Program-made: the position numbers
Source: a virus
Taxonomy: Duplodnaviria > Heunggongvirae > Uroviricota > Caudoviricetes
IMG/VR virus record: IMGVR_UViG_2802429244_000018
Coordinates: 1 to 46,327 of that record
Length of the DNA: 46,327 bases
Strand: one strand, 5' to 3'
Part shown: positions 6,001-11,023 of the stretch, piece after piece
How positions within the stretch are numbered: position 1 is the stretch's first letter
Layout of the letters: the number at the start of each line of letters is the position of its first letter

Positions 6001-9000
6001 TGTAACCATAATCATCTGCATGATTCTGGCTTACGTTTTTAGAGCGATTGTCTTTATCTTTGAGGCTGGCAACCATGTTGGTGATAGTTTCTGGTTGCTT
6101 GCCTTCCGACTTTTCTTTAAGGGTTTGACCTGTTTGTGCAATAAACGGGATGCGTATTTCCATCTGGTAGCTGTCTGCGCCAGTCTTTTTGTTTGTGGTT
6201 AATACTTTCTGGAGCACTAACCCGATTTTCTTTCCATGAAATTCAGGTGCAACAAATTTACTGGCGGAAACCATATGCTGCGTTAATTGTCCAATCCCGG
6301 CACACCCCATCATGGCGTGAACGACATTTGCGCCAAATTTGTTTTCCGTTCCGTCATTTTTCTGAACACAGACGCTAAGATATTGGATTTTACGTCCGTC
6401 GTCGGATTCGCCAGAAAACTCAATAAATTTGGCTCCTTTTTCTGATTGCTTTAGTTCTGCTTCAGTAATGGTAATGATATGAGCGCCAGTTTCGTTAATA
6501 AAACCACCTTGCCCTGCGGTCAGTGCTGCTTCTTCGTTATAAGTAAAAATCACGTTGCTCATGCGGCGTTTTCCTTAATTTGATGAACATTATTGATGCC
6601 GTAGTAATCACAAACAGTGGCATCGACGAAAGAGAGATCGTTATCAATCTCATTGGAATCAAACATTCCCATTGGGGATTTAACAGTGTCTGCACCGTTG
6701 TTTTTCGTGGTGAAAAAGAACTGGTCATCGCGGGTAAGAGTGCGAAGAACTATAGTAAACATGCCTTCGACAGTGATTTTCTCGTCCAGCATTTTGCCGA
6801 TAGTTTTCATTTTCACGCGCCCCATAGGGGTTTCTTCGGTGTGCGCAAGAAAATAGACTCTCAGGTCATCAGGTGCATCCTGTGCAGCCTTAATCACCTC
6901 CCATGCGTGGCGGCCTATCTCAGTAAATTTATCAAACGATTTTTCTTCTGAGCGACGCATAAACTCATTGCTCATCACATACTGGAAGTCATCAACAATA
7001 ACGATTCTTTTCCCGTATTCGTGAGCACGCTTAATTACGGCAACTATTACATCCCATTTATCAGTGGTAACTACGGTTCCTTTTTTTGCTCTGGCATCCC
7101 ATGCCAGCCAGTCTTTTGATTTAAATGGTAGCGGCTTGCCTATTGGTTTTATAAGTATTGCTTCCTCTGGATTGATATTTCTCATGCTGGTTGATTTTCC
7201 GGTGCCAGACTCACCGAGTATTAATGTCGCAGTTCCCATAATTCACCTCAGAATGGTAATTCGGATTGGGAGGAAAGAAACTCGCGCTCATTCATGCGCT
7301 CTCTTTGTGCCTGCCATAAACAAAGTTGTTTCTTTGATTTATCTCCCGCTTTACGCCAGTAACGAGCCTCAGCAATGTGATATTCTCTTTTTAATCGACT
7401 TAACTCTGGAGTTTTCGCCAGTTCTACCGGAATCATTTTGACCTCCATTTTCTGTAGGCTTCTACGGCCTCACGAAACATCTTTTCATCGCCAATAAAAG
7501 TGGCGATAGTGAATTTAGTCTGGATAGCCATAAGTGTTTTATCCATTTTTGGGGACTCCTGGCTGATTAAGTACGTCGATGAGTCGTTTCCATCCGTCAC
7601 GTAATTTACGGGTGATTCGTTCAAGTAAAGATTCATTTAGTTGGAAGGCACCCATGCGAGCGCCTCCCGCGATTGCGTAAATCATGGGTGGTTCCTTATG
7701 TTGGTTTTATTAGTAGGCTATTTTTGTTGCGAATACTTCGCCTTTTACGATGGCTGTTATGATATTTTTAGCAACATCTTCTGATGCACCAACCTTGATA
7801 AGGTCAGCAAGTATTTTGTTATTTACTTCTTTCCGGTGAGCTTTATCCTTTGCTCTACGCTCTTCTTCTTCCTTGATTCTTTTTTCTTCTGCTATTCTGG
7901 CTTGCTCTTTTGCTTCAGCCTCGCGACGGATTCGTTCAGCCTCCTCCTGTGCTTTTCTGCGTTCTGCTTCAATTGCTGCCTGCTTTTCTCTTTCAGCTCG
8001 TTCTGCTGCCTCTTTTGCTTCGCGCTGTGCTCGTTGCTCGGCTTCAATACGTTCACGCTCTGCACGTTCCGCTGCTGCCTTAGCTTCTGCTTCTCGCCTT
8101 GCTGCTGCTTCAATTTCGGCTTTTGCCTTTGCTTCGGCTTCAGCTCTGGCTTTCTCTTCAGCTTCTCTTTTTAAGCGTTCTTCATGCTCTCGCTTTTCCT
8201 GCTCCGCTTTGAGTCTTGCCTCTTCTCTTTGGCGGTCAAATTCGCGATCCATCAAAATCGCTATTTCATGGTCAGACTCAATTTGCTTTGCGAGAGCTTC
8301 AGCTGCTGCCTTAGCTTCTTCTTCGGCTTTAATCCGTGCCTGTTCCTCCTCATAATCAGTAAGAGGCTGGCGCGCCTTGGCTTTCAGTTCATCAAGGCGA
8401 TCACGCACTGTCTTGCGGTTAGCATCAATTAGCTTTGGAATTTCCTTCAGTTCAGCAACAAGGTCTTTGCCAAGACCATCGAGATATGTTTTCGTCTGCG
8501 CAACTTTATACGCCAGAGAAGCGATCTCCTTTCTGCCCTTTGCCGTTGTGATATCAGGCACAAAGGACATAACTTCACGTTCAACCTTTTGAAGTATTTC
8601 TTCAATCTGGTCGGCAGACTGAAATACAGTCATTGCATTTGCTTTTTCAATAACAACTAAATCTGTTACTTCACTCATATATCCTCCGTCAAAAAAATTG
8701 CCCTCACACTGGAGGGCAAAGAAGATTTCCAATAATCAGAACAAGTCGGCTCCTGTTTAGTTACGAGCGACATTGCTCCGTGTATTCAATCGTTGGAATG
8801 AATACACAGTGCAGTGTTTATTCTGTTGTTTATGCCAAAAATAAAGGCCGACTATGCGGCCTCGGAAGGAAGTCCAATCATCTTATTCAAATCTTCTACC
8901 CGTAAAGCAGGAAGTGCTGTACTTGCTTTATCTGCTTCTTTTGGTAGCAATTCTTTGCTTTCAGGCCAAACTTCAATGAGTCGCTTAACTGTTGTGACTG

Positions 9001-11023
9001 AGTTTAAAGCAGCCCATACATTTGATTCGATATCCTTTTTCTTTGCTTCAAGTTTTTGTTGTAATGCGCAGATTTCATCAAACCTTTCTGTTATTTCGTG
9101 TTCTGCGTCAAACATGCATTTATCTTTGGTCGGAGTAGGGAGCAATATATCTTCGCCGTTGCCGTCTTTCCCATATGAATGCCATCCAACCCTTCTGCCA
9201 GATACAGTCAGATAAATTGAAGTAGAACGAACATCGCATGAGTAAAATGAACATCCCATCTTTTCAAGTTCTTCACTTATAGCTACCAACTTGGATGATA
9301 ACTGATCCACTTCCTCAGTTTTCTTTTTACCGCCAAACGCAATAACTCTGGCGTCAAGTGCAAGTTGGTTCTTTAACTTTGTTACTTCTTCAAGTTCAGT
9401 GAAAACCCCAGACTTAATTAAAGCGTTACGAGCGATTTCCTCTTTCATTCTCGTAGTTAAGCGGATTGATGACATATTAATTCCTCTCAAATAAGTGGTT
9501 TGCTGCCTAATTTCATTTTCTGGCGACCAACACAAGTCACACCCATTTCACTGCGTGGCTTGCGGTAGTAAATACGGTTCTGTTTACGCTCGACTTCATC
9601 TGCCTTCTTGCAGCGAAGGCTTCCGAGTGATATTGCTTTTTCAGAAAGGCTTAAACGCTTTCTCGTGCCTTTCTGAACAGGTTCCTCACTGTCTGTGCCG
9701 AAGATAGAATCAATGATGTTGCAGATGGCATCACGCTCGATAGCCAGCTTTCTGCGCCGCTCATGACGGCGAGTTTTGGCATTTCCTGCAAATGTTGATT
9801 TTCCGTACACGATTACCGTCATGATGTTTTCCTCATGTGAAATGGCTTTGGTGGTGATGCGACAGATGCTGATCTTCTGGTTGCTGTCGTTGCAGCTGCA
9901 ATTCACATCACCGCCAAACCCATCTCGTTTGGTATCTGTTTGCGCTTTGTCAGCGCCCCATCGAAGTTAAAGAGCCTGCCAATCTGTTCCGTTTGGCTTC
10001 CAGCGTCCTGCTGATGTGTTTAGTATCACCGCTAGTGGTATGTGCGTCAACACCGCCAGAGATAATTTATCACCGCAGATGGTTATCTGTATGTTTTTTA
10101 TATGGATTTATTTTTTGCAGGGGTGCATTGTTTGGTAGGTGAGGGATCAGAATTGCACTGTTTAGCAAGTTGTATCTATCAATTTTTCAATAAATACAAT
10201 TGGTTATGGTGTTATTAGGTGTGGGGATCGAGAGGCAAAGAAAACCCGGCACTGAGGCCGGGTTGTTATTTATGGAAAAACACTTCAAGTATTTTGGGGA
10301 TTGCTGGTATGAGTTGTGAGGATACGACCGCACCTACAACCCATAGAATTATCGAAGTTTTCGCGTCGCTTACGTCTGATTTGGTTGCATAATTCGAGCG
10401 CATGACAGCCAGGTCGGTTTTCATTTGCTGAACATCTTTTTCGAGTTCTTTCACTCTTTGAAGCACATCATCACCTCCGCCATTGCCGCCACCATGCCGT
10501 GAGTATGCATCATCAGTTGGATAGTGTCCAATTGGGCGAGATATGTTTTGATTTGGACGAAGCTGAGTAACCTTGTTATCTAAACTCATCGCGAACTGAT
10601 CCTGTTATCTTCACGTCAAAAAACGAACTTTTTACATCAATTACTTCGCCTTTCTCAGGATTAACCAGTGATGCTCTAACTTCGAATATCCCAGGCTTGA
10701 TAATTTTCACCCTTGGGAAGTTAATTCTCATAGAAGTTGATACGATGGTTTCTCCATCGTTGGCTTCTGCTACCGTAAAAAACTTATGGTTGGAGTACAG
10801 TTTTGTGTCAATTGGTATCGGTATTTCTTGAGCATTGAAAACCTCAATGCCTATGGAATATTTTTTTGTAGCCTTAAGGCCGATAAAAAAAGCGCCAAAT
10901 GACAGATCCACTTCATGGGAGTCTTTATCCATTTCATAGATAAGAACTGGAGTTACGGGGTTGCCTTCATCCATCGCAATCGGAATGATATAAGAAATAC
11001 GTTCTTTAATCATTTACGTGTTA

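Follow-up and report, generated by a model that had tools for sequence, protein, structure and literature searches.

The sequence analyzed here is the 46,327-nucleotide (nt) stretch that makes up positions 1 to 46,327 of IMG/VR virus record IMGVR_UViG_2802429244_000018 (the window), which belongs to a Caudoviricetes virus and encodes lambda-type cI and cro. On its minus strand, the antiterminator gene N is followed directly by a gene for a 207-amino-acid (aa) protein, and this gene, together with the elements that flank it, is the subject of this report. The open reading frame (ORF) was found, as the initial annotation had proposed, immediately after N: it begins with an ATG at position 9475, 11 nt past the TGA stop codon of N, ends with a TAG at 8854-8852, and translates as MSSIRLTT...GLPSEAA. 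A GAGG ribosome-binding site is located 7 nt 5′ of the ATG. A longer ORF that starts at a TTG (to 9535) and overlaps N was rejected, as the N termini of homologues give it no support. The features of the locus, in the order in which a transcript from pL would meet them, are as follows.

10022..10050, minus strand: pL-like promoter from a promoter scan (TTGACG, 17-nt spacer, GATACT), overlapping a lambda OL1-like operator (10024-10040)
9942..9975, minus strand: nutL, with boxA GCTCTTTAAC at 9975..9966 and P22-type boxB GCGCTGACAAAGCGC at 9956..9942 (exact motif positions)
9487..9822, minus strand: N antiterminator gene, 111 aa (Pfam N_peptide, 6e-26; phrog_271)
8852..9475, minus strand: Nmad5-family gene, 207 aa, 23.1 kDa, isoelectric point (pI) 5.6 (PF18757, phrog_1965)
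8835..8863, minus strand: terminator-like hairpin 1 over the stop codon, GAGGCCG-CATAGT-CGGCCTT, then UAUUUUUGG
8720..8834, minus strand: structured spacer with a 9-bp hairpin, GUGUAUUCA-N10-UGAAUACAC, at 8807..8780 (fold z = -4.8)
8691..8719, minus strand: putative intrinsic terminator, 8-bp stem at 8719..8698 (5 G-C), loop of 6, T7 at 8697..8691
7710..8678, minus strand: next gene, predicted 322-aa Glu/Ala/Lys/Arg-rich coiled-coil protein (phrog_1376)

The 207-aa protein is a member of the Nmad5 family. Residues 4 to 203 matched PF18757 over profile positions 1 to 206 of 206 with a score of 239.8 bits (E = 4e-71), against a curated Pfam gathering cutoff of 27 bits, and the protein was also assigned to phrog_1965. 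The initial annotation had called the protein unknown, which holds for its experimental function and does not hold for its identity, as Nmad5 is a named Pfam and NCBI family and many homologues carry the NCBI label "Nmad5 family putative nucleotide modification protein." When 5.8 billion proteins were searched, 68 homologues were recovered, the most distant at 33% identity, and a profile search run without filters returned 2278 Nmad5 clusters at 50% identity (E ≤ 1e-3), the best 150 of which were all short and single domain, mostly of about 190 to 220 aa. Among 59 distinct near-identical coding sequences, the ratio of nonsynonymous to synonymous substitution rates (dN/dS) was 0.19 to 0.28, which shows that intact copies are under purifying selection. 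These results establish the ORF as a genuine gene that is conserved among phages and belongs to the Nmad5 family.

The gene is neither rare nor new. About 330 phage records, among them HK542, mEp235, Kapi1, and Stx1 and Stx2 phages, contain DNA at least 95% identical to the locus; the gene copies in HK542, mEp235, and the Stx1/Stx2 phages are 95 to 98% identical to that of the window, and the whole module is present in 209 of 5426 complete Escherichia coli genomes. The sequence itself adds nothing new, since hundreds of records from phages and E. coli already carry an annotation of the gene, and near-identical copies in hundreds of sequenced coliphages make it ordinary. The gene is thus already catalogued, is not new as a kind, and would not surprise a specialist.

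The region 3′ of the gene is shared with lambda. Alignment indicated that positions 8692 to approximately 8860 are about 99% identical to the lambda ral-ea10 intergenic region (lambda 33905-34086). The last codons of the Nmad5 gene supply the 5′ arm of hairpin 1, whose 3′ arm and U-tract consist of lambda sequence. Variants of hairpin 1 elsewhere mostly preserve the pairing through G-U pairs, and the 9-bp hairpin of the spacer is conserved. The 3′ element was present in 2240 of the 5426 E. coli genomes, making it ten times commoner than the Nmad5 gene, and a search of positions 8500 to 10400 against Rfam gave nothing credible, leaving the element without an Rfam family. The terminators of this region of lambda presumably belong to the tL2 cluster and not to tL1; a literature search did not confirm the name. 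About a dozen loci have extra small genes inserted within the 3′ element, after GGCATAAACAACAGA. A 32-codon ORF in the spacer (ATG near 8772) was rejected because its ribosome-binding site is poorly spaced, it reads through the terminator, and its 3′ end is variable; moreover, nonsynonymous variation in its loop fits a constraint on RNA and not on protein.

The shared segment ends on both sides of the gene. Across 80 near-identical viral loci, the match to the window breaks off at 8692-8694 in most cases, and on the other side it breaks off at 9495-9642, in the 3′ end of N; the gene and the 3′ element are therefore transferred together, as one cassette, between different N alleles and recombination modules. 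The modules beside the cassette are Erf/Abc2 in HK542, Red/Gam in an Stx1 phage, and the Sak4 type in the window. The orthologues in HK542 (HK542_033), mEp235, and the Stx1 phage are full length, 95 to 98% identical, directly after N, and followed by the same 3′ element, but they differ in the upstream N, of which the window has the P22-type allele with the arginine-rich motif GNAKTRRHERRRKLAIERD, and in the downstream module (Sak4 in the window, Erf or Red elsewhere). The order in lambda-type prophages is N, sieB (opposite strand), ral, 3′ element, DUF2528, cIII, kil, gam, bet, and exo. In 99 viral loci that were sampled through a 20-mer of the 3′ element, the gene immediately preceding it fell into one of at least 14 families, with Ral in 34 loci, a 156-aa protein in 17, Nmad5 in 11, a 149-aa membrane-type protein in 10, and others in the remainder. 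The description of the position as the ral/sieB slot proved literally correct: the 3′ flank is the lambda ral-ea10 spacer, and Ral occupies the same position in 34 of the 99 loci. We conclude that a cargo hot spot lies between N and the element and that Nmad5 is one of its mobile cassettes, taking the place that sieB-orf28-ral has in lambda between N and the ral-ea10 terminator element.

The hot spot spans positions 8835 to 9486 of the window. The 156-aa occupant starts with MTKSWSVPFPESETEH, DUF7446 is another occupant, and most of the occupant families lack a Pfam family. Within the slot, the Nmad5 gene and lambda ral (PF11058) are alike in lying between N and an identical terminator element and in transcription from pL, which is predicted for Nmad5, but the products have no sequence relationship and differ in length (207 and 66 aa). 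No match of the window protein to Ral was found at E ≤ 1, whereas a true Ral from the same slot scored 1.6e-48. Moreover, sieB, annotated on the opposite strand, separates N from ral in lambda, whereas in the window the Nmad5 gene abuts N.

The Nmad5 gene is not intact in every phage that carries it. In 48 records of Stx2a phages, the Nmad5 gene is split at approximately codon 37 by an insertion of about 1.3 kb (Stx2_716 locus, 1089-3022), which is apparently an insertion sequence (IS) element; the gene is therefore dispensable in those phages. In an Stx1 phage, IS transposase genes are found just downstream of an intact Nmad5 gene.

The arrangement of promoter and terminators bears on when the gene would be expressed. 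The pL-like site was the sole promoter-like site detected in positions 8400 to 10300, and the two motifs downstream of it are assigned as boxA and boxB after the nut sites of P22 and lambda. The stop-codon hairpin and the strong terminator of 8-bp stem and T7 that the initial annotation had described are both present where it had placed them. A terminator-site scan gave hairpin 1 a stem at 8863..8844 of 7 pairs followed by the U-tract TATTTTTGG, and the second site, 8719..8698 followed by T7, is 125 nt beyond hairpin 1. Judged by sequence, both that site and 8863..8844 with its TATTTTT have the makeup of intrinsic (Rho-independent) terminators, and eight terminator-like sites in all were detected in the scanned region compared to 1.8 ± 1.3 in shuffled sequences. 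On the minus strand, the scan placed no such site between pL and the 3′ end of the Nmad5 gene. With none between pL, nutL, N, and the gene, the Nmad5 gene would be transcribed before antitermination, and the predicted arrangement points to cotranscription with N from pL on an immediate-early transcript. The initial annotation had argued that expression would depend on N, which is at odds with a gene that directly follows N, is upstream of both terminators, and is joined to pL by terminator-free DNA; the genes that need N would instead be those beyond 8691. An N-modified polymerase would have to read past the tandem terminators before it could transcribe the coiled-coil gene, kil, the Sak4-like annealase gene, and the gene for single-stranded DNA-binding protein (SSB). 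In lambda, tL1 presumably lies between N and ral and makes ral delayed early. The 322-aa coiled-coil gene, which starts at 8678 and is the first past the terminators, is a separate module that is missing from many of the loci and phages that carry the Nmad5 cassette.

The Nmad5 protein is mildly acidic (pI 5.6) and is predicted to adopt a soluble alpha/beta fold. AlphaFold2, run with 54 diverse sequences, returned a model with a mean predicted local distance difference test score (pLDDT) of 91.7 and a predicted template modeling score (pTM) of 0.82. In this model, the WPE motif sits on two short helices, and the rest of the fold consists of three long helices, a small beta-sheet, and a helix of 32 residues; confidence is lower for the last 27 residues (pLDDT, 58 to 68). 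Conservation peaks at the C terminus. L166, W170, E172, L176, P178, and N197 are invariant in the 54 diverse members, and T162, K164, position 165 (K or R in 39 of 54), L196, and G201 are strongly conserved. The window protein keeps all of the family motifs, namely R5, R43, G48-G49, G93, T162, L166, W170-P171-E172, L176, P178, L196-N197, and G201. The initial annotation had proposed profile and structure searches as a check on the protein; the former gave full-length Nmad5, and the latter gave no match among solved structures. The best Foldseek match to the PDB had an E value of 0.25, such that a confident model matches no solved fold; profile searches against PDB sequences returned only designed helical bundles (E > 0.1), and a search of BFVD returned only other Nmad5 phage proteins. 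PADLOC and NCBIfam gave zero matches for the window protein, and no domain fusions were found among the homologues, as a second profile search also returned only single-domain proteins.

The wider family was compared by gene calling and clustering 77 diverse viral loci, which were retrieved with a single peptide pattern and are not phylogenetically independent. In 30 of the 77, Nmad5 is the last gene in the order phrog_6784, DUF2800 PD-(D/E)XK nuclease, Enc34-type SSB, Nmad5, and in 28 of those 30, DNA polymerase A (pol A) follows within two genes, succeeded by a VRR-NUC endonuclease and an SNF2 helicase. Elsewhere, Nmad5 follows O/P-like replication genes or is upstream of genes for a RecE-like exonuclease and an SSB; the copy in Vibrio phage Athena1 lies ahead of an O-like initiator, and in Klebsiella, Serratia, and Providencia prophages, Nmad5 is the first called gene after a CI-like repressor. 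In the window, the neighbors are N, the coiled-coil protein, Kil, Sak4, SSB, Ea22, cI/cro, and a primase-helicase. A neighborhood of modification enzymes (aGPT-Pplase, 5-hmdU kinase, hydroxymethylase, and the like) was not found among these, and among the annotated recurrent neighbor clusters of the 77 loci the only modification enzyme was a DNA methyltransferase family, present in 8. The family name reportedly derives from gene-neighborhood predictions by Iyer et al. in 2013. A literature search found no reported biochemical activity of Nmad5 on nucleotides or DNA. In Yuavirus (M6/SN1/Aergia-type Pseudomonas phages), however, Nmad5 lies inside a thymidine-hypermodification cassette that adjoins DNA polymerase (PMC9476957). 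The Yuavirus proteins belong to the same family, matching by tblastn over the C-terminal 87 residues with 31 to 42% identity, but their genes are flanked by aGPT-Pplase, kinase, radical-SAM/PLP, and DNA polymerase genes, none of which is found in the window. We conclude that the common denominator of the contexts is early expression near genes of DNA metabolism and not modification enzymes and that the label "nucleotide-modification-associated" fits Yuavirus but not lambdoid or PolA-type temperate phages.

The pol A-type arrangement recurs in temperate phages as an early module that runs from a CI-like repressor through phrog_6784, DUF2800, Enc34-type SSB, Nmad5, pol A, and PerC-like genes to VRR-NUC and SNF2, and its phrog_6784 protein (300 aa) is a further conserved uncharacterized protein. 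The window protein is not in the supplements of an accessory-gene screen (PMC12373910), and a survey of Chi hot spots in lambdoid phages (PMC12315714) does not discuss the gene.

One homologue has been connected to host immunity. Dhillonvirus phages escape the Tmn defense through the nmad5 mutation K296E in SM_S22 or K216E in SM_A8, deletion of nmad5 is viable, and nmad5 could not be cloned, apparently due to toxicity (Yamashita et al., PMC11846954). Dhillonvirus Nmad5 (SM_S22 CDS6, SECphi18 gp24) aligns with the C-terminal half of the window protein (30% identity, E = 7e-12) and shares its TxK[KR]LxxxWPE...LN..IGxP motifs, but it is 254 aa in length, with an insertion of about 40 residues and other length differences. 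The gene also differs in being alone, on the opposite strand, and among the head genes of a lytic phage, and the link to Tmn is known for the Dhillonvirus protein only. When SM_S22 CDS6 was aligned with the window protein, K296, the second lysine of NTDKKLIKAWPE, fell on R165, within TxK[KR]LxxxWPE, the best-conserved motif of the family. The residue mutated in K296E and K216E is the only one in the Nmad5 family that has been implicated experimentally.

As annotated, SM_S22 CDS6 (5005-6009) encodes 334 aa, and about 200 nt of it are shared with the scaffold gene. Its 80-residue N-terminal extension is probably an over-called start, and both the 254 aa of SECphi18 gp24 and the family N terminus MRLTKDIK suggest Met81 as the true start, which would reconcile the K296 and K216 numbering. 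Known Dhillonvirus triggers of immunity were considered as possible Nmad5 proteins and rejected: Ksap1, the KpAvs2 trigger, is a different protein of 74 aa, and the RAZR triggers are a portal protein and Gp77.

We tentatively favor a reading in which the window protein is a dispensable, nonenzymatic early accessory or host-interaction factor that binds DNA or a conserved host or phage component through its C-terminal surface. In the absence of N, transcripts of Nmad5 from pL would stop at the pair of tandem terminators. The protein would form a compact alpha/beta core of uncharacterized fold, and the conserved surface T162-x-K164-R165-L166-x3-W170-P-E172...L176-x-P178 would probably bind a conserved partner, with the flexible tail LPA-x-V-x2-LN-x2-IGLP joining the binding surface. 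The partner may be DNA or a host or phage component of DNA metabolism or surveillance, and binding could condition the cell for replication and recombination of phage DNA and could influence whether a host immune system, such as the Tmn NTPase, fires. The nonenzymatic part of this reading follows from the empty PDB sequence searches, the lack of domain fusions, and the lack of modification-enzyme neighbors in the window, and Nmad5 in this phage is most likely not a stand-alone nucleotide-modifying enzyme. The accessory part follows from the split gene of the 48 Stx2a records and the viable Dhillonvirus deletion, and the link to immunity follows from the alignment of Tmn-escape residue K296 with R165 and from the reported cloning toxicity of the homologue. 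The link to DNA metabolism follows from the Enc34-type SSB directly before Nmad5 in 30 of the 77 loci, pol A in 28, and the O-like or RecE-like neighbors elsewhere. The initial annotation had suggested a host-interaction or anti-defense role from position; that idea now has modest, indirect support from the hot spot, the dispensability, and the escape mutation of the homologue.

Several points weigh against an accessory, nonenzymatic factor of this kind. The role proposed for lambdoid Nmad5 is drawn from sequence, context, and data on a homologue, and to argue from a hot-spot location is guilt by association; such slots also hold exclusion genes. Deletion of nmad5 confers no escape from Tmn (PMC11846954), and the escape mutation may for that reason be a neomorph that reveals little of what the protein normally does. 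The invariant or near-invariant polar residues R5, T162, E172, and N197 could form a catalytic or ligand site, and the Yuavirus gene does sit within a thymidine-hypermodification cassette. Lastly, the 77 loci behind the context comparison share phylogeny and were drawn with one peptide pattern.

Some of the same evidence could indicate instead a dedicated accessory of replication or recombination that works with the phage SSB, polymerase, or annealase, such as a loader, an end-protection factor, or an inhibitor of a host nuclease, and not anti-defense cargo. The DUF2800 nuclease, Enc34 SSB, Nmad5, and pol A synteny of 30 of 77 loci, the adjoining O-like initiator in Athena1, the position upstream of a RecE-like exonuclease and SSB in another group, and the operon with Kil, Sak4-like annealase, and SSB that Nmad5 heads in the window are all in keeping with that role. 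Lambdoid Nmad5 nonetheless occurs alike with Erf/Abc2, Red/Gam, or Sak4 and therefore has no fixed partner. Its occurrence is also sporadic (209 genomes, compared to 2240 with the flanking element), the gene is disrupted in Stx2a phages, apparently by an IS, and the lone, opposite-strand Dhillonvirus gene in a head module tolerates deletion, such that we think a dedicated accessory possible but somewhat unlikely. The Pfam and NCBI name implies an enzyme that modifies nucleotides or DNA, or else an obligatory subunit of such an enzyme, and the name itself (a product of neighborhood predictions), the Yuavirus cassette, and the few invariant polar residues (R5, T162, E172, and N197) agree with that function. 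Such a function is improbable here, given that no modification enzyme is nearby in the window, that only the methyltransferase family occurs among the annotated recurrent neighbors in the 77 loci, and that Nmad5 has neither fusions to enzymatic domains nor structural similarity to any solved enzyme. The DNA of lambdoid coliphages is not known to carry hypermodified bases, which also counts against it. Moreover, the hypermodification cassette adjoins DNA pol A, and the Yuavirus association may therefore merely reflect the neighborhood of the polymerase.

The slot also raises the possibility of a superinfection-exclusion or defense gene expressed from the prophage, as it holds sieB in lambda-type prophages and the 149-aa membrane-type protein in 10 of the 99 loci. 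SieB-type exclusion has two hallmarks, a promoter that serves the gene in the lysogen and a membrane protein, and neither was found for the window gene. Because the gene directly follows N on the pL strand and no promoter-like site besides pL was detected, lysogens should keep it repressed; its product is a predicted soluble protein without a PADLOC match, and the family extends to the strictly lytic Dhillonvirus and Yuavirus phages. We regard a sieB-like role as very improbable. Nmad5 might also be a widespread immediate-early counter-defense or host-takeover factor in which TxK[KR]LxxxWPE engages a universally conserved host component and decides whether systems such as the Tmn KAP-NTPase detect the phage. 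That extension is unlikely in our judgment, and, if true, would define a new class of anti-defense or trigger proteins across lambdoid, PolA-type temperate, Dhillonvirus, and Yuavirus phages.

The value of the locus is one of framing, as a very large and uniform family of about 200 aa (the 2278 clusters at 50% identity) awaits functional assignment. Here, Nmad5 is found on the presumed earliest transcript of a phage with lambda immunity, in a tractable slot otherwise held by ral, and a residue of its conserved motif has already been implicated in escape from Tmn through the Dhillonvirus homologue. The early slot and the Tmn link would therefore make lambdoid phages such as HK542 and mEp235 convenient systems in which to find the role of Nmad5, and these phages could reveal whether the name "nucleotide modification" misleads.

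A separate observation concerns the region between cI and pL, where the position of rexA/rexB (10266-11013, minus strand) is taken by two unrelated ORFs. Neither matches Pfam or PADLOC. One encodes 145 aa (phrog_5893) and the other encodes 107 aa (phrog_6324) with a hydrophobic C terminus, and both are candidates for lysogen-expressed exclusion or defense genes.

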